Source of the DNA: Microgenomates group bacterium
GTDB lineage: Bacteria; Patescibacteriota; Microgenomatia; Daviesbacterales; UBA10151
Direction of reading: 5' to 3'
Length of the DNA: 64,000 bases
NCBI GenBank assembly: GCA_041659805.1
Contig: JBAZXP010000001.1
Coordinates: forward strand, 192,589 to 256,588
Made by a program: the position numbers and the translations under genes. Under the pieces are notes generated by a model. It searched no databases. It was not told where the DNA came from and worked only from the letters and a program-made list of their open reading frames with translations. Below are positions 8,581-26,379 of this stretch, piece after piece (position 1 is the stretch's first letter; each line of letters opens with the position of its first letter).

Positions 8581-10407
8581 TCATTTTAAATCCATGGAGT
8601 AAATTTTACTACCATCCAGTAGATAGACCTTTTTCTTAGCTTCATCAACTACCAAATCTATAAAAGCGCTGAATTTATCCGAGGTGTATTGAGACATGTA
8701 ATTTCCCTTTTTATCCATTACCACCAACCTATTGTTTCCTTTATCCAATACATACAAATTTTCTGTGTCAGATGACACAAAAAAGCTGGAAATTTCTTTG
8801 ATTGGTTTATCCAAATTAGCATAAGAGAAAAAATCTACTACACCTTGAGTAAATTTTTCTATCTCTACTTTATTTTTCAAAACCCAAACAGATGAATCAA
8901 TTTCTAATTTCAATGCTTCGCCTACACTTGGTTTACCTTTAAAATATTCCCGTTTATCAGAATAACCTGCTTCTGTTGGCAGGTATTTCCAGATCTGCGC
9001 AGAAGGGGAAGAAGAATTTCCTTTATCAAAAAGGTAGACATTTCCTCCAAAAGCATACAGATCTGCAATCTGCCCCCAACCGGTATCAGGTTTAACAGCG
9101 ACTGTTGTCTTACCACCTGAATCTATTTTTAACACGCCTTTATCCGCAGAAAATACAAAAGCCGTTTGCCCATTTAATGAAGCAAAGCTCGCATTCCCGA
9201 TTTTATCTGATCCTGCTAAAGCTTCCTGAGATTTAGAATTTAAATTAATTTTCACCAAGGAATTATTTCTATTGTCCAAAAGAAGTAAATTACCGGCGGA
9301 TTGAGACATTTCCTTAGTGGTGAAATCTTTCTTAATTAGGCTCAAATCCAGCCAAACAGGAAATTCTCCAACTAAATTGTTTTTAGAAATTTCCGGGAAA
9401 CTTATATCCAGTTTATTTTTCAGCTCTTTTGCTTCCCTGTTTTCAGGATCAATTTTTAAAAGAGTGTCCAGGGCATTTTTGGCATTATTTAGACTACTGA
9501 CAGCCTCTGCGGTGTTTGAATCTTTAAGAGTCTGCGCCCTGTTAATTTCATTTGTAGATGTCTGTAAATAACCGCTGATTTGTTTTCCTTTTTCAGCATT
9601 TTTTTGGTTATTAAAACTCGCGATTGCACTCACAATCACAACTATTAATATGGCAAATCCAATTATGGCAAAGCCCCTTTTAGACCTTGGCATCAACCTT
9701 GAAAAACCTTTTCTGATACCCCGTCCGATTTTTTGCAAAAAAGCCTTGGTTTTTACTCCGCTTTCTGACGCTAAAACTGGCTGATATTGTATTTCTGTTC
9801 TTTCTACTAATTCTTCTTTAGGAATAATCTTTTCTTTTTCTACAACGATTGCAGCCACAGGATAATTTTCTGCTTCAGGTAACTTACTGGCAACCTCGTC
9901 TTCTAAATTTTCAATTGGGTATTTTTCCAAGGACATTAAATCATCCTGCAGAATCTTATCCAATGTTTTAGTACACATGATGATTCTGTCTCCTTCCTTG
10001 ATAATCCCAGAGATTACCTGTCCGTCAGAAAGTGAGCATAAATCAGTCCTCTTTCCGTTTCTAACAAGGAATGATTCCAGGTTTCCGGGTTGCCCCATTA
10101 GATAAAAAAAAGTATCAGTTGATTCTTCCTGGGTGGCGGAAATTAATATATTTAATTCCAAAGAGTCTTTTAGAGCGTCTTTTATGCCATGGCAAACTTC
10201 TATGACCCTGTCAGTAATTGTAAGAGATGAGGCATAGAACGCACTTTCAGCATCAGACAAAGCTGCCCTGGTACGGGTAAAAGCATCATCAAGGCTTGCT
10301 GAAATAATAATAAATAAATAAAACTTTTGCTCTGGTTGTCGTGAAACCAAAGCGATGGCTGCATCAGTATCCGAATTTAAGCCAATAATTTTGGCTGTTT
10401 TTAGCAT
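8581..10407 (-). CDS. large membrane-anchored protein, unknown; cytoplasmic N-domain, one TM helix, extracytoplasmic repeat (beta-propeller-like) C-domain
   Basis: TM helix FAIIGFAILIVVIVSAIASF mid-protein. C-terminal repeated motifs such as YVLDKGNNRLVVMDKKGNY and VYLLDGSKIYSMD. Confidence 0.5.
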   Translation of the reverse strand: MLKTAKIIGLNSDTDAAIALVSRQPEQKFYLFIIISASLDDAFTRTRAALSDAESAFYASSLTITDRVIEVCHGIKDALKDSLELNILISATQEESTDTFFYLMGQPGNLESFLVRNGKRTDLCSLSDGQVISGIIKEGDRIIMCTKTLDKILQDDLMSLEKYPIENLEDEVASKLPEAENYPVAAIVVEKEKIIPKEELVERTEIQYQPVLASESGVKTKAFLQKIGRGIRKGFSRLMPRSKRGFAIIGFAILIVVIVSAIASFNNQKNAEKGKQISGYLQTSTNEINRAQTLKDSNTAEAVSSLNNAKNALDTLLKIDPENREAKELKNKLDISFPEISKNNLVGEFPVWLDLSLIKKDFTTKEMSQSAGNLLLLDNRNNSLVKINLNSKSQEALAGSDKIGNASFASLNGQTAFVFSADKGVLKIDSGGKTTVAVKPDTGWGQIADLYAFGGNVYLFDKGNSSSPSAQIWKYLPTEAGYSDKREYFKGKPSVGEALKLEIDSSVWVLKNKVEIEKFTQGVVDFFSYANLDKPIKEISSFFVSSDTENLYVLDKGNNRLVVMDKKGNYMSQYTSDKFSAFIDLVVDEAKKKVYLLDGSKIYSMDLK

Positions 10408-11273: not shown

Positions 11274-12953
11274 TTATCTCTTCTCGATATTAAATAGTGG
11301 ACCGACTATTGCAATATTTGCCGGTGCCCGAACATTAAAGTAATCTTTAAAAACTTTTCCATCGAAAGTTTTTGACCCAGCATCTCCGGAAAGAGTAATC
11401 GAGGTTGTTCTTCCTGAACCAAAATCAAAATTTGTAGAGATACTATCAATTCTATTAAACGGCGTCGCTCCCTTACTACGCAGCTCACTTTTAACTTTTT
11501 CAGCATCCCAGGAATCCCAATCAGTGGTATAGGCCGAGAGTATCGCTACATTAACAATATCTGCCACTTCATCTGATTTGAGCCAGGCAGATTTATTATA
11601 TTGTGGTCTCCAACCTTGGGCATTATAAAAACAAGGAGAATCTCTGTCGTAAGCTTTACTAAACAAGTCCGCGAGGCTGTTAATATCACCATTTACATCT
11701 TTTAAGTTTTTAGTCCAAGAGGTGCTACCTCCAAAAACCTCAGATGAAGGATGGGTATAGCCTCCATCTGTTGAAGAAAACCAAGCTTTAATAGGATTAC
11801 CACCAACAACCATGGCTTTTTTGGAAGTTTCATTCACCGCCTGTTCCCAAGCCCCACCTTTAGGATCAGTCTTAAACACCTGACAATCCTGGCTGGCACA
11901 AATAGAACCACTACCTTTATTGGTATAAGCCAGCGCATACGATCTGGCGGCAATTGCCTGGGCTTTTAATGATTCTATTGGCCATGACCCAGGCACCTCA
12001 TAAATGCGTTTGGCATAATCATCCAAACTACCACTCCAATGAATGTTCGCATTACTATCATCCACTCTGATAGTGACATCAAATTCCTGATATCCATCAA
12101 AATTATAATAAGCCTTCAAAATTTGATCATAGCTTTGACCGGCATTTGCCCGACCGTATGCCCCAAATTGACTCATCCCAACACGGTGTGGAATTCCGAA
12201 TGTATAAAAAGCGAAAGCAGGCGAAAACCCTGGATCAATATTGCGATCATCTGAACAAGCCATTGAAATACCGGCTGATCTGGATAAATGTAAGCTACCG
12301 ATTCTTGCTGCAATTATTTCCTGCTGACGGGCGGTCAGTGAGGCAATTTGTTTGGTTAAGTTGGTCTGGTAATCTTTAGCCTTTTTAACTTCCCCTCCAA
12401 TAAAAGCGGCATTTTTATCAACCTCTACCTGCATAGAAGCTAAAGCTTTTTTATCTTTTTCCAGTTTGTCTTTTTGAGTAATTAAATCCAACATATCAGC
12501 AGTGACTTGTGAAATAACACTCTGGTCTTCTCGTGTGGCTGCCTGACGGTAAGAAAGCTCGCGCAGTAAATCTCCGGAAGCAGCACTGGTAAAAATCACT
12601 GTAAAAGGAGAGGCCATATAAGAACGGATGTAATAAGACCTCACCCTTTGAGAAAGTAAGGATTGTTGAACAACCAACTTATCAGTACGAATCGAAATAT
12701 CTTTTTCTTTCTGAATAATATTGGCAGATAAGACTGCCAGCTTATTTTGAATTTGAGCAAGTTGAATTTTTAAAGCACTCAGTTGTCCTTCCAATGGTTT
12801 AGTGGCTGTAACAGACATTTCTCTGGCTTTGGATAATTCATCAATTTGTGCTTGTAAATCAGAAACCTCATCAGCAAAGGCAGGGTTTAGGGTGTAGGTT
12901 ATAGTGAGTAGGGAAAAAAATAATATAACTAGGAACAGGAAAATCTTTTTCAT
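11274..12953 (-). CDS. SpoIID/LytB-domain protein with an N-terminal signal peptide and coiled coil
   Basis: HRVGMSQFGAYGRANAGQSYDQILKAYY is the SpoIID signature. The N-terminus has Q/L-rich heptads. Confidence 0.75.
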   Translation of the reverse strand: MKKIFLFLVILFFSLLTITYTLNPAFADEVSDLQAQIDELSKAREMSVTATKPLEGQLSALKIQLAQIQNKLAVLSANIIQKEKDISIRTDKLVVQQSLLSQRVRSYYIRSYMASPFTVIFTSAASGDLLRELSYRQAATREDQSVISQVTADMLDLITQKDKLEKDKKALASMQVEVDKNAAFIGGEVKKAKDYQTNLTKQIASLTARQQEIIAARIGSLHLSRSAGISMACSDDRNIDPGFSPAFAFYTFGIPHRVGMSQFGAYGRANAGQSYDQILKAYYNFDGYQEFDVTIRVDDSNANIHWSGSLDDYAKRIYEVPGSWPIESLKAQAIAARSYALAYTNKGSGSICASQDCQVFKTDPKGGAWEQAVNETSKKAMVVGGNPIKAWFSSTDGGYTHPSSEVFGGSTSWTKNLKDVNGDINSLADLFSKAYDRDSPCFYNAQGWRPQYNKSAWLKSDEVADIVNVAILSAYTTDWDSWDAEKVKSELRSKGATPFNRIDSISTNFDFGSGRTTSITLSGDAGSKTFDGKVFKDYFNVRAPANIAIVGPLFNIEKR

Positions 12954-15230: not shown

Positions 15231-17336
15231 ATGAAATACCTGCCTTTGACCCTCTTACTTCTGATAAGTTGTTTTTTTTACATATTCCCTGGTGCAGTTA
15301 AAGCAGATGAATGTACCGGTAAAAATGTCGGCGATGCTTGTGGTGCATTCATAAGACAAATTGATGCCAACAATTGCATGCCATGCCATGGTAGCTGTAT
15401 AAACAGTGGCAGCACTTTATCTTGTAGTATGGCCGGAGGTAATGTCGGTTGTTCTCCGCAATATGCCTGCAGCGGGGTTAACCCTACCCCAACACCAATC
15501 ACTGCTCCACCCCAAGCTCAACAAGGAACTATTATTGGGGCACAAATTCCGCTTGAACAAGCACAAAGCACTATTAATCGAATGGTCCCTTCACAATATA
15601 GTTTCCAATGGCTTAAATATCAATTTTCATTAGGAAGTGGACAGAACTTAGGAGAGGCTGTAACAGCCGCAAAATCGTCTGCTGCCGGAGGAGGAAGGAA
15701 TTATAGCGTCTTGGTTTCAGTGGCAAAAAACGGTGCAGGAATTGAAACCCTAAAAAATCCTGATACTTACCCTCCTGAACAAGCTCCTGAATACTATACC
15801 CACAAATATTGTCCGTATAATGAAGAACTGGAAACATATTCTGTCAACCCTCATAATTGCGGCACTGACCTTGTTAGTGGAGAACCTCAAACCTGCTATG
15901 ATTCACAAACTGCTCAACCAAAATCAGATAACGGTTATATAAAATTCAGAGATCAGATGGAGGCATTAGCCTCAACTTTAAATTCATTAGGAGTTGAGGC
16001 GGTTGAAATCTGGAATGAGCCTAACTTAGCAGTGGAATGGACTAATCAGGGACTTGGTCCAATCAGCCCCCAAAATTATGCAAATTTTTTTATCTGTGGA
16101 GCTAAAGGCCTTAAAAAAGGTGGCTACAATGGGAAAATTATTACTGCAGCACCCTCTCCCGGTGCAGGTGGAACAGGAAATATGGATGATCTGGCTTTTT
16201 TTGATGCTTTTTACAATGAACTTAATTCCCAGGGTCAATTAGGATTAGTTGATGCTTATGGGTGGCATGGGAATGTAACAAGAGATATCTCACCCACCAG
16301 CAGTGATGTAAACGGATTTCAAAGATTCTCAAGGATACTTGGCAAAGGTAAACCTGTTTGGCTAACAGAATTTGGTTGGGATAGAAGTATTTTACCGGGA
16401 TCAGAAGAACAAAAGAGACAAAAACAGGGTCTTTATATTGCCCAGGCTTATGGCGTAATTAACAGCAACTTCTTAAATAAAGTTACAGCTATGTTTGTCT
16501 GGAATTTTGGCTTTACCAAAGCAGGGAGGACTGAAGCAGAATTTGTTGATTGGGATATAGAAGGAATTACTCCTCAAGGACGGCTTTGCCAACCAAATGC
16601 TCCCATTGACCCCAGATATAGAGGAGACCGGAGAAGCACCACTTATGTACAGGATAAATCTCTTTCGGATGATGAAATTGTTGCAACTGTGGCGGGCTTA
16701 GCCTTAGTACCAAAGACAGTAATCGAAGACGCCAACCAGAGTGCCAGGACAATTAGTCAAACCAAGGTTGATACCAAAAAAAGCTTTTACAGCAATCTTC
16801 CGTTACTTGGTGATTTTTTGAGCCAAATTGCTAACCTGATCGATTTTTTCCGCTGTATGATTGGTCAATCAGAGTTTTGTAAACCGAATTTATCAATTGG
16901 TATTGCAGAAAAGATAGAAGGAGGAACTGTTCCAGGAAAAAATACAGCCTCATTTGCGTCGGAAGCTCAAATATTAGGACAGGCCGCCATTCCCAATGGT
17001 ATGGAATTAGTTCCTGAAGAAAGAGATTGTAATATAGGATTTCAGGGAGAAGAACCGGATCCCGGTCATATCAGATTAAACACGCTTAGTGAAACAATGG
17101 GAACTACCACTGGCTTTTATGGTAATAATATGCCTGATTTCAAAACTTTAACCCCAGACGATTGGTTAAATATAATAAAAGACAGAATGCAACAGGAAAA
17201 CTTAAATATTGGCAGTAAACTATTTAATCAGGATAAAAGATCCCCTGATTTATATGTCAGAAAACAGGTGATGTGTAAAGGACTATATCCGGAAGGCATT
17301 TGTCCTTTTGAACCTTCCCCTACACCAACCATATAA
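15231..17336 (+). CDS. secreted clan GH-A (GH5-like) glycoside hydrolase with an N-terminal Cys-rich module and PT linker
   Basis: Signal peptide, then about 10 Cys within the first 60 residues after it, then a PTPTPITAPP linker. Catalytic-type motifs VEIWNEPN (acid/base NEP) and VWLTEFGW (nucleophile TE). Confidence 0.6.
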   Translation: MKYLPLTLLLLISCFFYIFPGAVKADECTGKNVGDACGAFIRQIDANNCMPCHGSCINSGSTLSCSMAGGNVGCSPQYACSGVNPTPTPITAPPQAQQGTIIGAQIPLEQAQSTINRMVPSQYSFQWLKYQFSLGSGQNLGEAVTAAKSSAAGGGRNYSVLVSVAKNGAGIETLKNPDTYPPEQAPEYYTHKYCPYNEELETYSVNPHNCGTDLVSGEPQTCYDSQTAQPKSDNGYIKFRDQMEALASTLNSLGVEAVEIWNEPNLAVEWTNQGLGPISPQNYANFFICGAKGLKKGGYNGKIITAAPSPGAGGTGNMDDLAFFDAFYNELNSQGQLGLVDAYGWHGNVTRDISPTSSDVNGFQRFSRILGKGKPVWLTEFGWDRSILPGSEEQKRQKQGLYIAQAYGVINSNFLNKVTAMFVWNFGFTKAGRTEAEFVDWDIEGITPQGRLCQPNAPIDPRYRGDRRSTTYVQDKSLSDDEIVATVAGLALVPKTVIEDANQSARTISQTKVDTKKSFYSNLPLLGDFLSQIANLIDFFRCMIGQSEFCKPNLSIGIAEKIEGGTVPGKNTASFASEAQILGQAAIPNGMELVPEERDCNIGFQGEEPDPGHIRLNTLSETMGTTTGFYGNNMPDFKTLTPDDWLNIIKDRMQQENLNIGSKLFNQDKRSPDLYVRKQVMCKGLYPEGICPFEPSPTPTI

Positions 17337-17384: not shown

Positions 17385-19103
17385 ATGTCTGCCCTACTAA
17401 GAAAAGTTGTCGGTTGTCGGTTGTCGGTTATCGGCCTGTTTTTATTTATAATATTTGCAGTTAATTTCTTTATCCTCACTCCATCTGTTTTTGCAGCTGA
17501 TAACTGGCAAAAACTAAACCCTTCTAACTATCAAGACAGAATTGCTACTCAAAGATATTTTACGAATCTGATAGTTGCAGCGAATGTGGCTATGTCCGGG
17601 GAAGATCCTTTAAACGGACCTGCTTACAGCGAAAAGGTTACAGTCACGAGTACTGATGGTGCATACAACATGAATTCAGTCCCCGGTATTGGTCCGGGAG
17701 ATAAGCAAGGAGGGATGATCGGTATGGCAACTAAATCAATCGCTTCTATAATATCCACCCGTCCAACTTCCAGCCAGGAATATCTGGCTAATTTAGGAGA
17801 GAACATTGGAATCGCTCCCAAGCCTGCTTATGCTCAGATTACTGGGTCAGGACAAAATGTCATTGATCCTGTTTTAAAACTTTGGCAGGTCACCAGAAAT
17901 ATTGCCTATACTGGTTTTATTTTGGTCTTCATGGCAGCAGGAGTCATGATCATGTTCCGCCAAAAACTTAATCCTCAAACAGTCATTGGAATTCAACAGG
18001 CATTACCAGGCATTGTGGTCGGTTTAATTTTGGTTACCTTTAGCTATTTTATCGCAGCACTCATTGTTGATTTGTCGTTTGTCGGCACCCGGCTGGTTAC
18101 TGAAATATTTGTGAGTTCAGGAGAAACTAATTACTTCGGATGCACAGTGAAATGTGAAGAGGGTGGAAATCCCAAGCAAAAAAATATAGACGGGCTTCGT
18201 CAAACTTATAAAGATTCCGATGCTTTTAATATGTTTCAAAGAGTTGCTTTAAGAGTAAATAATGTCACTGATGTATTTAGAAATGTCTGGGGAACGCTGA
18301 TCACTAATCCTGATGTCCCACCTGAACCAGAAAGCCAGGAAGCTTTACTGCAAAGACTTAGTGTAACAACACCTCTTCCAGGTGATGAAGCTGCAGTATC
18401 ATTTGCTGGAGCAGGAGGGGCAGTAATCAAAGATCAGGGAATTCAGGGAGTAGTTGCAATGGGTGTTGCAACAATCGCTTCTTTGTTGGTTCCTCTAATC
18501 TTAATGATTGCTTTAATGATTCAATTTATTAAATTAATTATCGCCTTGCTGATATCATATTTACAGATCTTGTTGATGGTTATTTTTGGACCAATCTTAA
18601 TTATGGTTTCTGCCATCCCAGGCAGAGGGGGTGCATTAAGCTACTGGTTAAAAGCTCTTTTTGCAAATGCTTTAGTTTTTCCAGCTGTTTTTGCCGGATT
18701 TTTGTTTGCCGGTTTACTTTTAGAATGGGCTGGTACCAGCGGACCTACTTTTACAGCCAACATGCCTATGTTTGGGGGGTTACATGCTAATGTCCTAAAA
18801 TCATTACTGGCTTTTGGGGTTTTGCTGGGATTACCTGCAATTCCTGATATGGTCAGAGATGCCATGGGAGTTAAAACTCCTCAAGGATTTATGAAAGCAG
18901 CTGTGGGTGGATTTATGGGTGGAATCGGAGGTGCTCAAGCAGGTTATGGTCAGGCTATGCAGCGAACTGGTCTGTCAGCAAGAAAAGAAGCTATGGAGAA
19001 AGCACAACTGGAAACGGCTGCGCACAATCGTCCTGGAGAAGGCGGACCACAAAATACAGGAGAAAGAATATTGTCTTGGTTGCCGAGTGGTGGACGACGT
19101 TAA
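17385..19103 (+). CDS. TrbL/VirB6-like polytopic membrane protein
   Basis: Signal/TM helix, a ~130-aa extracytoplasmic N-domain, about 6 TM helices, and a Gly-rich C-terminal tail (GGFMGGIGGAQAGYGQAMQ) typical of TrbL. Lies in T4SS-like context. Confidence 0.55.
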   Translation: MSALLRKVVGCRLSVIGLFLFIIFAVNFFILTPSVFAADNWQKLNPSNYQDRIATQRYFTNLIVAANVAMSGEDPLNGPAYSEKVTVTSTDGAYNMNSVPGIGPGDKQGGMIGMATKSIASIISTRPTSSQEYLANLGENIGIAPKPAYAQITGSGQNVIDPVLKLWQVTRNIAYTGFILVFMAAGVMIMFRQKLNPQTVIGIQQALPGIVVGLILVTFSYFIAALIVDLSFVGTRLVTEIFVSSGETNYFGCTVKCEEGGNPKQKNIDGLRQTYKDSDAFNMFQRVALRVNNVTDVFRNVWGTLITNPDVPPEPESQEALLQRLSVTTPLPGDEAAVSFAGAGGAVIKDQGIQGVVAMGVATIASLLVPLILMIALMIQFIKLIIALLISYLQILLMVIFGPILIMVSAIPGRGGALSYWLKALFANALVFPAVFAGFLFAGLLLEWAGTSGPTFTANMPMFGGLHANVLKSLLAFGVLLGLPAIPDMVRDAMGVKTPQGFMKAAVGGFMGGIGGAQAGYGQAMQRTGLSARKEAMEKAQLETAAHNRPGEGGPQNTGERILSWLPSGGRR

Positions 19104-19107
19104 TGGT

Positions 19108-21081
19108 TTATCTGCCTATATCGCTAAACCCTTGTTTAAATATGTGACCCAATACACCTAAAATAAAGCCTATAATGCCATCTTTTACAGTCGACGCCAA
19201 ATTTGCTACTCTCCAATAACGACCGAGCGCTTTTTCTAAAACTTTTTTTCTGGTATCCAAGGTAAAAAACGGTGGCTTGTTTGGATCAGTTAACCCTGCA
19301 AGATCATTTGCCATAGATACAATTTCAGCGTTGTTATATTTTGGTTTGCCTGTCCTTTCTTCTCTCGTGGTTTGGGCAAAATCAATAAAATCAACCGCTA
19401 AGGCTTCTTTTGCCTCATCTTGATTTTTTTTTGAAAAAGCAAAAGCATCCATTAACTTACGTAAAGATTCAACAGTTGGATTCCTTAAATAGCTTTCAGA
19501 TGTCTTGGTTAAAGCATCTCGCACACCTTCTGCACCCTGAACACATCTACTAGCCCAAAGGCCCATTAAACCTCTCCCCATTGGACTAAAATCACGACCT
19601 TCCAATTTTTTAAAATCTACTCGGCCAACCTTACCGCCCGCATTATGATCTTTTCTGTCTAACCATTCCATTCCTGGTACACCATATTTAATAAAACCAC
19701 TTTCTTTTTCAAACAGACTTGCAACCCCTTCATTTCTGGTAAAAAAATCTCCCCCATAACAATCAACCTTATTAATTAATTGAACATGAGCATGTATTGT
19801 TGCCTGTTCTTTAATGACCAAATCACGCTGTTTCATGGTTCTTCTGGTATCATAATCACAGCCATCGCCTCCTCCTATCCAATCAAACTTTACCTCTCTT
19901 TTATGTTGTTTACCATCAGGGTCAGTAACATAATATACAGCGCCATTAAGCTTTTTTCCTTCATAATAATCGTCTGTAATACGAAGTTCTTCTGGTATTG
20001 GCTCTAATACCGGTAATTCAGGAAGGGGTGTTTTATTTTCTACTGCGTCTTCTAGATCTTTTTTATATTTTCGATATTCTGCTATCTGTCTTTTTTGATA
20101 TATAGACCATTTGCTTTCTGCAACCCATACATCCTTACCGTCTTTGTCTTTTTTCTTTTCCGTAAACACCATAATTCCTTTATCAACCAAAGAATCAAAC
20201 ATCACAGCCCGGCAAGTAAAGCGGAACATTCTTTCTGCTAAAAGTTGTGCTGCTGCATAATCTTCTGGTTTACCTCCAAATTCTTTGACTAAATGTCCCT
20301 GAACTTTTGCGGCAAACAACGGTCTGTTCTCAAACGCACTAAAAACAGTAAATTCTTCGCCGTGTTCCTCGTAATATTGCAGGGCCTGAATAAAAGGATT
20401 AAATTCTGTTTCTGTTTTTGGACTAATTTGTTTCATTCCATAGATGGCAGTGAAGTGTTCTGGCTGCAGTTTTTCCTGAGCAGCTTTTATTACCACATTA
20501 AGATCAGAGGAGTTTTCATATTGCAGAGAAATCTCACGGAAAATCATTCTGGCTTCTACTTCTTCCAGCATATTTTTTGCTTCATCTTGCATATTTTTTG
20601 CTTCAGAATACGCCCTTTTTTCTTCATCCGTCTCTCCTAAAGGAATTTCTTCCCCTTTTAAGCTGCCTAAAATTGAATTTATTCGGGTATACTCAGTAGT
20701 AATTTGTTGGCTGAGACTGCCTTTTTCCAGTTCTATTCTGCTTAAAAGAGCTCTGGTCCTTTTGCGGGCTACTTCCGCATCCTTTGGCCAATAAACCCAC
20801 ATTTGGCGTTGCATTTGATCAAAAATTCTAACTGATTTAAACCCCGGTTTTTCAGGAAGCGGGGAATATCTTTCCACTATTTCCCAAGGCAGAAGCCTTG
20901 GATCTACCTCACGACGTCCGGTATAAGGATCAATTGTTTCCTCATCTTCTATATCTACATGGGGGGTTGCAGCGCGTCTTTCCTCTGCAGGCCTAGCTGC
21001 CGCTGCTTCTGTGGGTGGTATTCCTCCTGTTTCAGGTCCTGGACCTGTTCCTCCATCTGGCATAATTCTTTCTCTTTCCAT
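19108..21081 (-). CDS. large soluble protein of unknown function (657 aa); the first ~50 codons are markedly GC-rich and Pro/Gly/Ala/Glu-rich
   Basis: Long uninterrupted ORF with no recognisable P-loop or HUH motifs. N-terminus MERERIMPDGGTGPGPETGGIPPTEAAAARPAEERRAATP. Confidence 0.6.
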   Translation of the reverse strand: MERERIMPDGGTGPGPETGGIPPTEAAAARPAEERRAATPHVDIEDEETIDPYTGRREVDPRLLPWEIVERYSPLPEKPGFKSVRIFDQMQRQMWVYWPKDAEVARKRTRALLSRIELEKGSLSQQITTEYTRINSILGSLKGEEIPLGETDEEKRAYSEAKNMQDEAKNMLEEVEARMIFREISLQYENSSDLNVVIKAAQEKLQPEHFTAIYGMKQISPKTETEFNPFIQALQYYEEHGEEFTVFSAFENRPLFAAKVQGHLVKEFGGKPEDYAAAQLLAERMFRFTCRAVMFDSLVDKGIMVFTEKKKDKDGKDVWVAESKWSIYQKRQIAEYRKYKKDLEDAVENKTPLPELPVLEPIPEELRITDDYYEGKKLNGAVYYVTDPDGKQHKREVKFDWIGGGDGCDYDTRRTMKQRDLVIKEQATIHAHVQLINKVDCYGGDFFTRNEGVASLFEKESGFIKYGVPGMEWLDRKDHNAGGKVGRVDFKKLEGRDFSPMGRGLMGLWASRCVQGAEGVRDALTKTSESYLRNPTVESLRKLMDAFAFSKKNQDEAKEALAVDFIDFAQTTREERTGKPKYNNAEIVSMANDLAGLTDPNKPPFFTLDTRKKVLEKALGRYWRVANLASTVKDGIIGFILGVLGHIFKQGFSDIGR

Positions 21082-21171
21082 AAACCCTCCTTTTCTTAAC
21101 CCAAGCCTAAAAATTGCCTGAATTATATCCTAAAGCAGAGCTTATATCAAATTTAGTATAGCACAACTAAT

Positions 21172-22203
21172 CTATGCTGCCTGCCCTGGAGACCAACCGC
21201 AAACCCTGTCTTCCCCATCCTCTCCTTTAATCCTCCCAGGACAACTGGTAAGCTCTCCTCTTTCCATTCTTTTCTCTTCATCAGGACCGGGCTCCCAGCC
21301 ACACTTTCGGCATCTGACTTTCTCGCAACCTGTACTCACTTCCTGGGAATTCCCGGCAAAAACATTAAAAGCAGTATTGGCTTTAGGTGGACAGCTGGAA
21401 CCTCTATTTCCGACCATACCGGATCTTCCTGCTATATTTACAAATTTTTCCACATTAACCCTGCCTGTATCAGCTGCTGTTTGTTGATATATATCCAAAG
21501 CCTGATTTACTGTTTGTTGCTTTAAGATTAAATCTTCACCGTTTCTGACTTGTCTGACCTGCTTTAAGGAAATATCAGGCAACAGCTCCTCTAATATATA
21601 AGTCCAGTCGCAATTATCACTTAATTCAAGAGGAATAGACCGCACTTCGTCATTTGATGAAAAATACGGCTTATTATGAGAATAATTCGCCAAACCCCGG
21701 GCAAACTCCAAACATTTAGCTTCTTTTATATCCAAAACAATGGCCCTGTTAAATAAAATCTGTTTCCCGTCTTGTTCCCTGATTTCACTGACAATAATCT
21801 TAGAAACCGAATAGGCTCCAGCCTCTGGTGGACTAACCCAGGCAATAACGCCTGACTTTTTACCCTTAACTATCTTTTGTATACTGTCAAAAGCCTGAAA
21901 TTCTAACTCTCCGACTTTGGAATCTCGTAAAATAACTTCTTCTACTAATTTACCGGTAACAGGGGAAAGAAGTTTACCATCTTCACGGATTGTATAAAAG
22001 TAAGGATCAGGAATTCTTTTTGTTTCCATGCATAAAGAAGCAACCTCTTCCGCAAATTGAGTTTTTGGCTTGCCCTCCCAGGCGCGGGCGCCATCTCTAA
22101 GCTCCCGAATACCAATACTATTATCTTGAGACGGAATAGAACTACTCTGAGGTCTTAAATGGGCATCTATTGAGGAGTCTGTTAAAGTTTCTAATCTGGT
22201 CAT
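21172..22203 (-). CDS. unknown protein with a C-terminal Cys-rich (zinc-ribbon-like) tail
   Basis: CEKVRCRKCGWEPG...SCPGRIKGEDGEDRVCGW at the C-terminus. No other recognisable motifs. Confidence 0.55.
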   Translation of the reverse strand: MTRLETLTDSSIDAHLRPQSSSIPSQDNSIGIRELRDGARAWEGKPKTQFAEEVASLCMETKRIPDPYFYTIREDGKLLSPVTGKLVEEVILRDSKVGELEFQAFDSIQKIVKGKKSGVIAWVSPPEAGAYSVSKIIVSEIREQDGKQILFNRAIVLDIKEAKCLEFARGLANYSHNKPYFSSNDEVRSIPLELSDNCDWTYILEELLPDISLKQVRQVRNGEDLILKQQTVNQALDIYQQTAADTGRVNVEKFVNIAGRSGMVGNRGSSCPPKANTAFNVFAGNSQEVSTGCEKVRCRKCGWEPGPDEEKRMERGELTSCPGRIKGEDGEDRVCGWSPGQAA

Positions 22204-22245
22204 AGTTTCCTGCTCGGGACAAATGCGGTTCGGTCTCCTGGCTTA

Positions 22246-22330
22246 ATCAGAGTATCGGCATATCAGCAAATCAGCAGATCAGAAATAAATATCTGACACG
22301 CTGACTCGCCGACACACTGACAAACTGAAA
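22246..22330. repeat. imperfect ~40-bp-arm inverted repeat built from 8-bp-periodic units (5 x ATCAG arm, 10-nt AT loop, 5 x CTGAC arm), located in the leader of the minus-strand gene 21172..22203
   Basis: ATCAG at 22246, 22254 (ATCGG), 22262, 22270, 22278. CTGAC at 22293, 22301, 22309 (CCGAC), 22317, 22325. Most arm mismatches are A:C on the plus strand, which become U:G wobbles on the minus strand. Confidence 0.6.
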
Positions 22331-22540
22331 TTACAGTTGCGGCACAGCTCCCGAGTCTCACGGGATTCCCATTTACCTTAACTCTTTTTAACGAGTGGTA
22401 AACCGCCCTTTTAAATTACACAACTATGTTGTTTTTGTCAATTCCCATCATGAAAGCACCAGATACATTAAGAATAGGCTAAATTGATCTCTTTTGAGAT
22501 GCTTGCGAGTAAAGTTTTCACGAGTTATACATAAAGGACT

Positions 22541-23725
22541 ATGGAACCACATCCTATTCCACAAAATGTAACTTCTTTTGAATTCCACTTAGTAGGGGAT
22601 ATGACTCTAAAACAATTTATTTATTTAGGAGCCGGACTCGGTACTGCTTATTTACTATACGCCACACTCTTTTTTTCAATCCCTGTTTTAGCTATCCCAT
22701 TAATCCTTATTTCCAGCGTGCTTGGAATAGCTTTTGCTTTTGTGCCTATTTACGACCGGCCTTTTGATCATTGGGTTGGTGCTTTTTTCAGAGCTGTTTA
22801 TTCACCGACAAAGGGTTCCTTTAAACTAAGATCTAATCCTAAGTTAAAGGTTACTCCTAGTGATCCTTTTTTACAAAACAGGCTACAGCTATACCTTTCT
22901 TCCATGGGAATGACTGTTAATCTTTGGGATAAGCAAATTCCGACTGCACCTGCCACATCTACCCCCACTCCAACACCAGCAATCCCTGAGATTAAGGAGA
23001 TTAAAGAATCAGAAAAACAGGCTACCTTAGCAGAAAATATCTTAACTAAAACTTTAGGGAATATCCAAGCCCAAGCTCAACCGGAAAGTACCAGTCATCT
23101 ACCTTCCCAACAGGAATTAACAAATCTAGTGGAGATGGCTAGACAAGCACAAGTCTTGCAGGGAAAAATATCTGATACAGAAAAATTAATTAAACAGATG
23201 ACAACCACAACTAAGCAGACAGAAACAACCCAGATTCAGTCCAGTTTAAAAGCTCTCTTACAACAAACAGAAGAGTTATACCAAAAAACTTCCAGCATGA
23301 CTCAGGCAACAACACATACAACTGCTGCCCAACAACTGCCGCAAACAGTACCGATAACACCGGCCCCACCTATTTTAACTCAACCGGCAGTTGCTCCGAA
23401 GGTAACAATAGTCCAACCTTTGGCACACAAGGAAACGCAGGTAGTTTTAACCTCAACTCCGAATGTTATTAACGGCATTGTCGGTGATGATGCCGGAAAT
23501 TTCCTGGAAAATGTCATCGTAATTATTCACGATAAAGACGGAATGCCTGTCCGGGCTTTAAAAACAAATAAATTAGGCCAGTTTGCAGGAGCGACACCTT
23601 TACCTTTAGGTGTTTATACAATCACCCTGGAAAAAGAACATTTTACCTTTCAAACATTACAAATAACGCTTGATAATTCAGTGCTTGGACCTCTTCGAAT
23701 AGTTGCTAAAAGAGGAGGACAATAA
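22541..23725 (+). CDS. PrgI/VirB3-like two-TM N-terminus fused to a long Gln/Thr-rich coiled region and a C-terminal carboxypeptidase-regulatory-like beta-sandwich domain
   Basis: N-terminus FEFHLVGDMTLKQFIYLGAGLGTAYLLY resembles the PrgI family (FGLTLRQF...). C-terminus GIVGDDAGNFLENVIVIIHDKDGMPVRALKTNKLGQFAGATPLPLGVYTITLEKEHF. RBS AAAGGA before the ATG. Confidence 0.5.
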   Translation: MEPHPIPQNVTSFEFHLVGDMTLKQFIYLGAGLGTAYLLYATLFFSIPVLAIPLILISSVLGIAFAFVPIYDRPFDHWVGAFFRAVYSPTKGSFKLRSNPKLKVTPSDPFLQNRLQLYLSSMGMTVNLWDKQIPTAPATSTPTPTPAIPEIKEIKESEKQATLAENILTKTLGNIQAQAQPESTSHLPSQQELTNLVEMARQAQVLQGKISDTEKLIKQMTTTTKQTETTQIQSSLKALLQQTEELYQKTSSMTQATTHTTAAQQLPQTVPITPAPPILTQPAVAPKVTIVQPLAHKETQVVLTSTPNVINGIVGDDAGNFLENVIVIIHDKDGMPVRALKTNKLGQFAGATPLPLGVYTITLEKEHFTFQTLQITLDNSVLGPLRIVAKRGGQ

Positions 23726-23726
23726 T

Positions 23727-24632
23727 TTGACTACCAGCCAAGAATTTATTCCGATTAGCGATGTCAGTAAAAATTTAGTATTTCAAAAAGACGGATCTGT
23801 AGCAATTATCCTCTCTGTCTCAGCCGTTAATTTCGCACTTCTGTTTGAAACTGAACAAATTTCCATTATTGATTCATTCGCAGGTCTTTTGAATTCCTTA
23901 TCCTTTCCCATTCAAATTGTAATTTATTCCAAAATCATGGACGTTTCTTCCTATTTGCATACAATTGACAATGCCCTTGCCCGTCAAGCCAACCCTCTAC
24001 TTAAATCAATGACCTTAAAATACCGTGATTTTGTGGAAAAAAGCATTAAAGATAACAATGTTCTGGATAAAAGGTTCTATGTTTGCATTAAATTAACGTC
24101 TTTAGAATTAGGTCTACTTCCTTCCAATATGGAAGAAAAAACAAAAAAAGTTACAACACTCCTTGAACCAAGACGGGACCATTTGATCAGACAACTAGAC
24201 CGACTTGGCTTAAAGGCAAAGCAGCTAACAACAGAGGAAATCATTAAATTATTTTATGAAATCTATAACCCGCCCATTACAACAAGTGCTGACTTACCTG
24301 TACAAAGCAATGTCAAGGCTACTCCCTTATTGGAAATCCATCAGCCACCCGCCAACCCTCCGACGGACGCACCAAGGGTAGAAAATAATCTGCCGCCAAA
24401 ACTCCGGCCGATTAAACCGGCTTTGACTCAACCGAGCATTCCAGCACCTGCTGTAAAACCGACAGCTCAAACAACGATTCTTGTTCCGGTCGCCACGGCA
24501 GCACCGGTAGTGACGGTTCCAATCACACAACCGCCAGTCAATCCGACACCAACGCCTATCCTTAACCAAGCCGCTCCGCAACACAATAGCCCTTTTGTGG
24601 TAGAAGAGCTACCTGATGACGATGGATCCTAA
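23727..24632 (+). CDS. VirB4/CagE/TrbE-family protein, N-terminal portion, ending in a Pro/Thr/Ala-rich tail
   Basis: FIPISDVSKNLVFQKDGSVAIILSVSAVNFALLFETEQISIIDSFAGLLNSLSFPIQIVIY matches the N-domain of Gram-positive VirB4 homologs. TTG start at 23727 preceded by an AGAGGAGG RBS. The track ORF begins at an upstream in-frame TTG at 23703. Confidence 0.6.
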   Translation: MTTSQEFIPISDVSKNLVFQKDGSVAIILSVSAVNFALLFETEQISIIDSFAGLLNSLSFPIQIVIYSKIMDVSSYLHTIDNALARQANPLLKSMTLKYRDFVEKSIKDNNVLDKRFYVCIKLTSLELGLLPSNMEEKTKKVTTLLEPRRDHLIRQLDRLGLKAKQLTTEEIIKLFYEIYNPPITTSADLPVQSNVKATPLLEIHQPPANPPTDAPRVENNLPPKLRPIKPALTQPSIPAPAVKPTAQTTILVPVATAAPVVTVPITQPPVNPTPTPILNQAAPQHNSPFVVEELPDDDGS

Positions 24633-26379
24633 GCAAAAACAACTAACATTTGAAGATGCAGTGGCACCCTATGAAATGGAGATGGATTTTTCGTTCCTAA
24701 AAATTAATCACCGCTATTTACGTTCTTTTTTTGTATCTGCTTATCCCCGTTATGTTGAACCAAACTGGCTGGAACCGTTAATTTCTTTTGAACATTCAAT
24801 GATTTTATCCATGTTCATCTACCCCACCAGCTCAGCCGGAATCTTAGATGATTTAAAAAGAAAAATTGCGGAAATGGAGGCCACTATCCAAACTGATCTA
24901 GAACGGGGACGAGTTGTTAATCCAACTGTAACAATAGCACTTGATGACGCCAAGCAGTTACAGGAACAACTAGCTAAAGGCTCGGAACGATTTTTCCAGT
25001 TTAGTTTATATATCGATGTCCCTGCAGATTCCATAGAAGAGCTAAACAATAAATCACAATTAGTCCAATCCACCCTGGGTAGTATTTCAATTACTTCGCA
25101 TCCGTTAATGCTCCAGATGAAAGAAGGGTTTGAAAGCACTTTGCCTTTGGGACAAGACCCTTTGTATTTGGCACATAATATGGATACCACCTCTCTTGCC
25201 ACCACTTTTCCTTTTGTCTCATCAGAGCTTACTTCTCCGGACGGAGTAATCTATGGCATTAATGCACATAACGATTCCTTAATTATTTTTGACAGGTTTA
25301 GTCAGGAAAACGCCAATTCAGTAGTTTTTGCCACAGCCGGAGCCGGAAAATCTTATTTTGTGAAACTGGAATCACTGCGTTCATTGATGCTGGGCGCTGA
25401 AATAATTATCATTGATCCGGAAAAAGAATATGTCGATTTAGCCAATGCTGTGGGAGGAGATTATATTAATTTCTCTACTGCCTCCCCGGTTAAAATCAAT
25501 CCTTTTGACTTGCCTGATATAGCCAACAGCGAAGAAGACGAGTTGGGAAGAAAGATTTTATCTTTAACCGGTTTTTTAAGGTTGGTTTTAGGCGATTTGA
25601 CTGCCAATGAAGTTGCAGTTTTAGACCGGGCTTTAAATGCCACTTATAAATTAAAAGGTATTACTGCCAATGTTTTTAATAAAGCTGACCCTACCAGTAA
25701 ACAAAAAATCGAAGCTCCGTTAATGGAAGATTTATATAAGATTTTAATCGGTATGGAAGACACTATGGCTGGCAGTCTGGCAATCCGTTTGGAAAGGTTT
25801 ATTAAAGGCTCTTTGGCAGGCATTTTTTCTGCCCAATCCAATATCAATATCAATAACCCTTTTACTGTTTTTTCGGTTCGTGAATTGCCTGATCAACTGC
25901 GACCTTTGGCAATGTATTTAATATTGGATTATATTTGGACCAAAATCAGACGCGAGATTAAAAAAAGAATTTTAGTAGTGGATGAAGCCTGGTATATGAT
26001 GAAGTATCCTGATTCAGCTTCTTTTTTAGTGGAGATGGTCAAGCGGTCCCGAAAATATTACCTGGGTGTCACCACCATATCTCAGGATGTGGAAGACTTT
26101 TTAGGGCAAGACCGGGGTAAGGAAATTATCTCCAACTCAGCTATGCAAATTTTATTAAAACAAGCGCCTGTTTCCATTGAAAAAATAGGAGCTGTTTTTA
26201 ATCTGTCTCAAGGAGAAAAAAGACTACTAACCACTGCAGGTGTCGGACAAGGGCTCTTTTTTGCAGGCAATGTGCATATTGCCATGTCAATTGTGGCCTC
26301 AGATGAAGAACATCAGCTGATCACTACTAACCCAAGAGAAATTTTAGAACGCCAGGAAAAAGAAAAAGGAGATAAATAG
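24616..26379 (+). CDS. VirB4/CagE/TrbE-family ATPase, central and C-terminal portion
   Basis: AYPRYVEPNWLEPL, Walker A ATAGAGKSYFVK, Walker B RILVVDEAWYMM. Overlaps the upstream ORF by 17 nt in the +1 frame. Confidence 0.8.
   Translation: MTMDPKQKQLTFEDAVAPYEMEMDFSFLKINHRYLRSFFVSAYPRYVEPNWLEPLISFEHSMILSMFIYPTSSAGILDDLKRKIAEMEATIQTDLERGRVVNPTVTIALDDAKQLQEQLAKGSERFFQFSLYIDVPADSIEELNNKSQLVQSTLGSISITSHPLMLQMKEGFESTLPLGQDPLYLAHNMDTTSLATTFPFVSSELTSPDGVIYGINAHNDSLIIFDRFSQENANSVVFATAGAGKSYFVKLESLRSLMLGAEIIIIDPEKEYVDLANAVGGDYINFSTASPVKINPFDLPDIANSEEDELGRKILSLTGFLRLVLGDLTANEVAVLDRALNATYKLKGITANVFNKADPTSKQKIEAPLMEDLYKILIGMEDTMAGSLAIRLERFIKGSLAGIFSAQSNININNPFTVFSVRELPDQLRPLAMYLILDYIWTKIRREIKKRILVVDEAWYMMKYPDSASFLVEMVKRSRKYYLGVTTISQDVEDFLGQDRGKEIISNSAMQILLKQAPVSIEKIGAVFNLSQGEKRLLTTAGVGQGLFFAGNVHIAMSIVASDEEHQLITTNPREILERQEKEKGDK

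Follow-up and report, generated by a model that had tools for sequence, protein, structure and literature searches.

We analyzed a 64,000-nucleotide stretch of DNA from a Microgenomates group bacterium (assembly GCA_041659805.1, contig JBAZXP010000001.1, positions 192,589 to 256,588; hereafter the window), which carries a type IV secretion system (T4SS) locus with a predicted glycanase gene in its midst. This gene is an open reading frame (ORF) on the plus strand that runs from its ATG to its stop codon at positions 15231..17336 and encodes a protein of 701 amino acids (aa). The protein comprises a predicted signal peptide, a Cys-rich module, a Pro/Thr-rich (PT) linker, a catalytic domain of the glycoside hydrolase (GH) clan GH-A, and a conserved C-terminal domain, which we refer to as the CT domain. 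Six genes for VirB2-like T4SS pilins (PF18895; 13029..15221, plus strand) lie directly upstream, separated from it by 9 nt. Directly downstream, after a gap of 48 nt, follows the plus-strand gene for a 572-aa polytopic membrane protein (17385..19103) for which hydropathy analysis predicts about seven transmembrane segments; it has no Pfam match and is VirB6-like by position and topology only. Further along the same strand, Pfam profiles recognize a PrgI/VirB3-like gene (22541..23725) and a VirB4 ATPase that is split into a TraC-like N-terminal part (23703..24632) and a P-loop part (24616..26379). The genes dnaN and dnaA follow at 29-32 kb. A gene on the minus strand, divergent from the pilin array, encodes a SpoIID-domain protein (11274..12953; PF08486, E 1.2e-13), a candidate for the peptidoglycan lytic transglycosylase of the locus. 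The earlier note on this DNA, made from the sequence alone, had placed the enzyme inside the secretion locus, and this is confirmed by its neighbors on both sides, whose arrangement is syntenic with that in related genomes.

We assessed synteny in the loci with available upstream sequence (L001-L008, L088, and L089); one more, L090, starts at the gene itself and shows the downstream half only. The homologous gene always sits directly after a pilin array of four to six genes and directly before the gene for a Pfam-less membrane protein of 510-825 aa. Each locus contains one gene with a CT domain, fixed between the pilin and VirB6-like genes, and the syntenic T4SS position is thus a conserved feature of this gene. 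The SpoIID gene is kept at its position in L001 (a 1.1-Mb contig of a Daviesbacteria metagenome-assembled genome, MAG), L002, L003, L006, and L088. Genes for PrgI, the TraC-like protein, and VirB4 are located downstream in the related loci. Since the overlapping two-ORF arrangement of VirB4 recurs in L001, L003, L006, and L088, we consider the split a real lineage feature and not a frameshift error.

Some of these loci show peculiarities of their own. In L006 (4640..6106), L089 (194..1669), and L003 (6532..7713), the pilin array begins with an enlarged gene (393-491 aa) that matches the T4SS pilin profile weakly; it may represent a pilin fused to an extra domain. HicA toxin and MazE antitoxin genes have been inserted into the locus of one relative (L006, 4029..4247 and 9673..9879; L007, 905..1123 and 6549..6755), and one of these toxin-antitoxin-type genes separates the CT-domain gene from its VirB6-like neighbor.

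The 701-aa protein possesses a single hydrophobic segment (aa 5-23 by hydropathy), which is followed by VKA|DE; no further transmembrane segment was found. We infer a Sec signal peptide that spans aa 1-25 (from position 15231 to position 15305, plus strand), with its cleavage site placed according to the -3/-1 rule, and the suggestion in the earlier note that the enzyme is secreted is borne out to this extent by the protein's N-terminus. A lipobox look-alike (LISC, at C14) is not kept in P0004 or P0007, and we rejected a lipoprotein reading. The adjoining Cys-rich module (aa 26-82; 15306..15476, plus strand) contains eight cysteines (C28, C37, C49, C52, C56, C65, C74, and C80), so that the Cys-rich stretch expected behind the signal peptide is indeed present but with a count of eight instead of about ten. 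This accessory module, a putative glycan or surface binder, has no match in a Pfam scan and is optional; it is carried by 6 of the 18 close relatives with six to eight cysteines (six in P0003 and P0004 as compared with the eight found here). The even numbers of cysteines (six or eight) fit an extracytoplasmic location of the protein. In the structural model calculated with AlphaFold2 (AF2), the predicted local distance difference test score (pLDDT) of the module is about 55, too low for the disulfide connectivity to be read. Neither the Pfam scan nor the model provides support for the Cys-knot-like nature suggested in the earlier note. The anticipated PT linker follows (aa 83-99; 15477..15527, plus strand), its PT-rich sequence VNPTPTPITAPPQAQQ corresponding to aa 83-98.

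The catalytic domain covers aa 100-444 (15528..16562, plus strand). It carries the two motifs that had drawn attention to this gene, IWNEPN (aa 260-265; nt 16008-16025) and LTEFGW (aa 378-383; nt 16362-16379), with E263 (codon GAG, 16017..16019, plus strand) as the predicted general acid/base and E380 (codon GAA, 16368..16370, plus strand) as the predicted nucleophile. A search of 5.8 billion proteins yielded 17 close relatives with 31-57% identity, the best named one of which derives from a Candidatus Daviesbacteria MAG. In the resulting alignment of 18 sequences, the core of both motifs (W261-N262-E263-P264-N265 and T379-E380-x-G382-W383) is invariant, as are G344-W345-H346 and N425-F426-G427, while W424 is nearly so. 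Besides the two glutamates, N262, H346, and W424 are hallmarks of clan GH-A. Family profiles gave graded answers. PF11790 (Glyco_hydro_cc) matches the protein with 23.1 bits at a cut-off of 21 (E 6.5e-5; profile positions 61-193 of 237) and is found in 15 of the 18 family members (best E 2.1e-9). The GH5 profile PF00150 remains below its threshold (13.7 bits, cut-off 23.5, E 0.044) and reaches E<=0.01 in 5 of the 18 members; the GH39 profile PF01229 does not match the protein at E<=1 and gives weak matches in five of the 18. A scan with the NCBIfam models produced no match, and a search of the PDB with the single sequence returned only a chance match (E 0.87). No SLT, muramidase, or CHAP catalytic domain was detected in the protein by Pfam or NCBIfam, and its fold is that of a TIM barrel.

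When the family profile was compared with solved structures, the best match was PslG of Pseudomonas aeruginosa (E 2.1e-10). In the PslG construct 31-442, E263 and E380 align with chain positions 139 and 250, i.e., with E165 and E276 of PslG, and the E165Q/E276Q variant of this enzyme is catalytically inactive (PMC4928890). The AF2 model, for which the family alignment served as input, has high confidence between aa 100 and 425 (block pLDDT values mostly 85-97) and shows eight beta/alpha units; E263 is located just after strand b4 (aa 257-260) at its C-terminal end, E380 lies within strand b7 (aa 376-381), H346 ends strand b6, and W424 is placed on b8. A beta-hairpin insert at about aa 180-235 is missing in the short-form relatives. 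Foldseek comparison of the model with the PDB ranked PslG first (E 2.8e-11), followed by GH30, GH53, GH5, GH10, and GH128 enzymes. The model and these top matches, all of which belong to clan GH-A, support the TIM barrel suggested in the earlier note and place both glutamates at the barrel strands where they had been expected. The designation of the enzyme as GH5-type was too specific, and we rejected membership in GH5, given its sub-threshold score and the fact that the nearest solved relative, both by sequence and by fold, is the GH39 enzyme PslG. Taken together, the Pfam and PslG profile matches, the alignment, the AF2 model, and the Foldseek results identify a predicted retaining glycosidase of clan GH-A whose catalytic pair is intact; clan GH-A, PslG-like, is the safe call on these sequence and model data, and PslG/GH39-like is the closest description. 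Members of the family score at least 456 bits with the family profile and all other GH-A proteins at most 109 bits, a gap which suggests a distinct subfamily.

We also scanned contigs with the whole-family alignment, and the matches listed are mostly GH-A genes from Chloroflexota that share both motifs. Among the matches listed (L009-L087), the nearest relatives of the GH-A domain outside the Candidate Phyla Radiation (CPR) come almost all from Chloroflexota, including Anaerolineae, Thermomicrobia, and Thermoflexales, and they match at about residues 239-432 with 24-35% identity. These organisms may represent the source of the GH-A domain or share a substrate class with it. Some of the Chloroflexota relatives bear LysM, SH3b, or GH18 modules, which hints at cell-wall-associated glycans as substrates. 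At least one of the matches listed, L008 (CAZZEB010000007.1), is a true full-length relative. It stems from a MAG labelled 'uncultured Gammaproteobacteria' and carries the full CPR-type arrangement, with a small-ORF array, a 570-aa GH-CT relative, a 532-aa protein, and a cobalamin riboswitch; this contig is probably mis-binned or mislabelled.

PslG, the closest characterized relative, processes exopolysaccharide (EPS), and Patescibacteria encode many GHs that are thought to feed fermentation (PMC11665869). The enzyme might hence be an ordinary nutritional or EPS-processing glycanase that has come to lie in the locus by chance, where it would trim the EPS of its own cell in the manner of PslG or release sugars for fermentation. 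We consider this very improbable, since no EPS biosynthesis genes are present near the gene in the window, all related loci keep the gene at the same position, and the enzyme forms a fusion with a CT domain that is tied to this slot.

The CT domain (aa 445-701, 257 aa; 16563..17333, plus strand), as delimited by alignments and AF2 modeling, goes unmentioned in the earlier note. It is conserved in the long-form close relatives, of which there are 13. With the CT region alone as query, 1.84 billion cluster representatives were searched exhaustively by HMMER, and the domain was found in 54 of them at E<=1e-3 (43 at E<=1e-10). A further large homologue search with an alignment of the CT domain yielded one protein. 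Sorting of the new representatives by local hmmsearch with separate catalytic and CT profiles showed that 12 of 45 combine a GH-A domain with the CT domain, and that the remaining 33 lack the GH-A domain. These GH-less proteins fall into three groups: some consist of a signal peptide and the CT domain only (234-267 aa), others possess heads in which small Cys-rich modules are combined with PT linkers, and a third group has larger Cys-rich heads of 200-450 aa without Pfam match. No Pfam match was obtained for the N-termini of ten GH-less CT proteins. Four proteins of this kind (P0074, P0083, P0118, and P0080) occupy the same slot of the locus after the pilin array. Conservation at this position hence concerns the CT domain; the glycanase, like the Cys module, is an optional head. 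Since the CT domain is the conserved element and the GH domain is missing in 33 of the 45 representatives, we view the enzyme as a lineage-specific head and not as a generic wall-breaching part of the apparatus. Judged from the sequences, domain shuffling occurs within the CT family: in P0072, a Cys module of the type described above is joined straight to the CT domain in the absence of a GH domain. A further variation is seen in P0012 (L003, 9489..11594), in which the N-terminal Cys module is replaced by about 150 aa of Cys-rich sequence inserted between its GH and CT domains.

The CT domain is poorly predicted in the model of the whole protein. When it was modeled by itself from an alignment of 47 sequences, AF2 attained a mean pLDDT of 88.4 and a predicted template modeling score (pTM) of 0.87 for a domain that is mainly alpha-helical and contains small beta elements. 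Near-invariant positions (in the numbering of the whole protein) are C550, C600, G612, D668 and R670 of the motif QDxRxPD, and P687 of the motif YPxGIxP; PExxDCN and GN are further motifs of the domain. The near-invariant pair C550/C600 probably forms a disulfide. The CT domain has no Pfam match, no sequence match in the PDB, and no Foldseek match in the PDB or BFVD, and we did not find sequence or fold similarity to VirB5/TraC. Neither a lysozyme-like/SLT (VirB1) fold nor a VirB8-like NTF2 fold, both of which we considered, received support from Foldseek.

A variable N-terminal head in front of a conserved C-terminal domain is also the layout of the Xanthomonas T4SS effectors (X-Tfes) with their XVIPCD domain. 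Together with the signal peptide and the fast evolution of the protein, this layout might point to a two-step effector: Sec would export it, and the T4SS would subsequently release or deliver it in the way Ptl does with pertussis toxin, with the CT domain as a recognition module and an N-terminal payload acting on the host. Yet head-less proteins that consist of a signal peptide and the CT domain share the slot, and such a bare tag would have no payload. Furthermore, each locus has exactly one copy in a fixed place, which resembles a machine subunit, and no immunity-like gene consistently adjoins the homologues. These findings make a two-step effector quite unlikely.

Comparison of the proteins encoded in the window with those of the Daviesbacteria MAG (L001) revealed large differences in the degree of conservation across the locus. 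VirB4 (95% identity) and SmpB (91% identity) are highly similar, from which we conclude that the organism of the window is closely related to the Daviesbacteria MAG. Lower values were found for the pilins (71-83%), PrgI (73%), the SpoIID protein (66%), and the VirB6-like protein (60%), while the glycanase as a whole is only 53% identical; its Cys-rich and PT regions (26%) have diverged most, followed by the CT domain (53%) and the GH domain (62%). The gene is thus among the fastest-evolving ones of the locus, and its fast divergence fits what one would expect of an exposed protein that contacts a partner.

An enzyme that is encoded in a T4SS operon beside the pilins could also be a functional replacement of VirB1, with the GH-A domain opening the cell's own wall (peptidoglycan, a secondary wall polymer, or an S-layer glycan) for assembly of the T4SS channel and pilus. 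No SLT or CHAP domains were detected by Pfam in the T4SS locus of the window, and a survey of Patescibacteria T4SSs found canonical VirB1 mostly unlinked to VirB4, its authors stating that other glycosidases might substitute for it (PMC12102498). Still, the SpoIID-type gene that is conserved beside the pilin array provides another candidate for breaching the wall. Moreover, the GH domain is missing in the 33 GH-less CT representatives whose loci are otherwise alike, which argues against a general requirement for assembly, and the fast divergence of the heads does not fit a conserved substrate in the organism's own wall. Clan GH-A enzymes are not known to cleave peptidoglycan, nor are muramidases known among them. 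A role in place of VirB1 is therefore unlikely. The same considerations, namely the lack of known muramidases in clan GH-A, the conserved SpoIID-type lytic transglycosylase candidate next door, and the dispensability of the enzyme in most CT-family loci, make peptidoglycan a less likely substrate altogether. An exopolysaccharide, a capsule, or a wall-associated glycan is the more likely one, since PslG, the closest characterized enzyme, cuts exopolysaccharide. A host polysaccharide, as the earlier note had suggested, would be a plausible target.

In light of these data, we propose, with moderate confidence, that the protein is a Sec-exported modular accessory subunit of the T4SS or pilus of Patescibacteria (CPR, Daviesbacteria-like), a subunit that is defined by its CT domain and equipped with swappable heads, a surface-polysaccharide glycanase among them. 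The protein would be exported by Sec with removal of its signal peptide, and the CT domain would hold it at the T4SS/pilus apparatus outside the membrane. Such docking is suggested by the fixed slot between the pilin and VirB6-like genes, the single copy per locus, and the existence of head-less versions. The GH-A domain would cut a beta-linked polysaccharide by double displacement, with E263 acting as acid/base and E380 as nucleophile, and the Cys module would probably help to bind the glycan or a surface. The glycan, be it an exopolysaccharide, a capsule, or wall-associated, would be cut where the T4SS pilus works, and it would belong either to a partner cell or to the bacterium itself.

The domain architecture, the modeled fold, the placement of the catalytic residues, the strict synteny, and the modularity are shown by our data. 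Several points weigh against the proposal. We infer every functional step beyond fold and synteny, i.e., signal-peptide cleavage, docking of the CT domain, enzymatic activity, and substrate class. The link of the CT domain to the pilins or to the VirB6-like protein is positional only, and its role cannot be read from the structure because its fold matched nothing. The Pfam support for the single glycanase sequence is marginal (23.1 bits versus a cut-off of 21), and the CT family is a small one that, among the sequences sampled, does not extend beyond a narrow CPR lineage. Finally, the T4SS of S. epibionticum, the sole Patescibacteria T4SS that has been characterized experimentally, has a pilin array without such a gene after it; the wall hydrolases of this organism, lysozyme-like/CHAP and M15/M23 proteins, are located after VirB4. 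A bolder version of the accessory-subunit proposal, which we offer tentatively and regard as possible but doubtful, holds that the CT domain is an unrecognized pilus subunit of the Patescibacteria T4SS with a new fold, a VirB5-analogous tip or adaptor that would display interchangeable heads, be they glycan-binding Cys modules, a PslG-like glycanase, or further Cys-rich domains. These heads would recognize and locally digest the glycans of partner cells and would thereby help to set the host range of epibionts.

In the one species tested, the T4SS of Patescibacteria is indispensable for epibiotic growth, and its function has been called completely unknown (PMC10633639, PMC11665869). The survey of these systems describes homologues of VirB2, VirB3, VirB4, and VirB6 along with pilin arrays, reports neither a consistent VirB1 nor a VirB5 and, for Microgenomatia, very few homologues of VirB6, and does not describe the protein studied here (PMC12102498). 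To this picture, the locus adds a fast-evolving, Sec-exported family with a fixed place behind the pilin array and ahead of the VirB6-like gene. Its CT domain has an unmatched fold, and its heads are swappable, a predicted active glycanase being one of them. Seen as an enzyme, the protein adds a new member to a known clan. Seen as a T4SS component, a GH-A glycanase joined to a conserved unclassified domain behind the pilins is without precedent in the literature that we searched, in which we likewise found no GH-A/GH39 enzyme and no hydrolase-bearing VirB5 in a T4SS. If the heads act on the glycans of partner cells, the family would help to approach host recognition in CPR lineages that are uncultivated and would also supply new enzymes for polysaccharide degradation; should the protein serve only the cell's own wall or its nutrition, the gain would be a modest one in annotation. 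The CT family is confined to uncultivated organisms.

Several other features of the window were recorded. A cobalamin riboswitch (RF00174, 51.2 bits, E 7.8e-10; 22214..22418, minus strand) is situated inside the T4SS locus, directly upstream of a pair of minus-strand genes (21172..22203, 343 aa; 19108..21081, 657 aa) whose products have neither a Pfam match nor a transmembrane segment. It is found at the same position in L001 (17247..17377), L002 (18316..18487), and L008 (11727..11879). When the gene pair of the window (19108..22203, minus strand) was compared with that of L001 (13835..17233), the two products proved extremely divergent, the 657-aa protein being 29% identical and the 343-aa protein giving no BLASTP match, in spite of the 95% identity of the VirB4 that flanks them. 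B12-regulated genes of no Pfam family inside a CPR T4SS locus look worth a separate study. A tmRNA gene (7680..8080, minus strand) adjoins smpB (8128..8568, minus strand), and four tRNA-Ser genes with differing anticodons and one tRNA-Arg gene are clustered within about 4.6 kb (1896..6493). A promoter and terminator scan of the region from 12.8 to 19.4 kb was uninformative, with counts at or below the shuffled expectation.

The enzyme part of the protein finds its best counterpart in PslG (GH39, clan GH-A; PDB 5bx9/4zn2). Both enzymes share the (beta/alpha)8 barrel and the aligned glutamates in the NEP and TE(F/W)GW motifs, which are 117 residues apart in the protein described here and 111 in PslG. 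The two proteins are only about 15% identical. PslG hydrolyzes a surface exopolysaccharide in an endo-acting manner and is likewise encoded inside a machinery operon; unlike the 701-aa protein, it has an N-terminal membrane anchor, is encoded in an EPS-synthesis operon instead of a T4SS locus, and lacks both the Cys module and the CT domain. The same clan GH-A catalytic core is also represented by PF11790 (GH128-type) and PF00150 (GH5). Hydrolases of the VirB1/PrgK/TraG type resemble the protein in being glycan-cleaving enzymes, an activity that is predicted in our case, encoded in a T4SS operon, here of a monoderm-type system (PMC12102498). They differ from it in their lysozyme-like SLT, muramidase, or CHAP folds, which act on peptidoglycan, whereas the protein described here has a GH-A TIM barrel that is optional in its own family and fused to a separate conserved domain. 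Xanthomonas effectors share with it a variable enzymatic or binding head on a conserved C-terminal module that is linked to the T4SS. X-Tfes have no signal peptide and are recruited in the cytoplasm by VirD4, whereas the protein of the window is Sec-exported and disulfide-rich, exists in head-less versions, and is encoded by a single fixed gene of the operon. The CT domain in turn resembles the minor pilin VirB5/TraC in being Sec-exported, about 230 aa long, mostly alpha-helical, and encoded between virB2-like and VirB6-like genes, a resemblance that is positional only. The stand-alone CT proteins, with their signal peptides and lengths of 234-267 aa, correspond to the description of VirB5 as a Sec-exported protein of about 220 aa that is encoded between virB2 and virB6.

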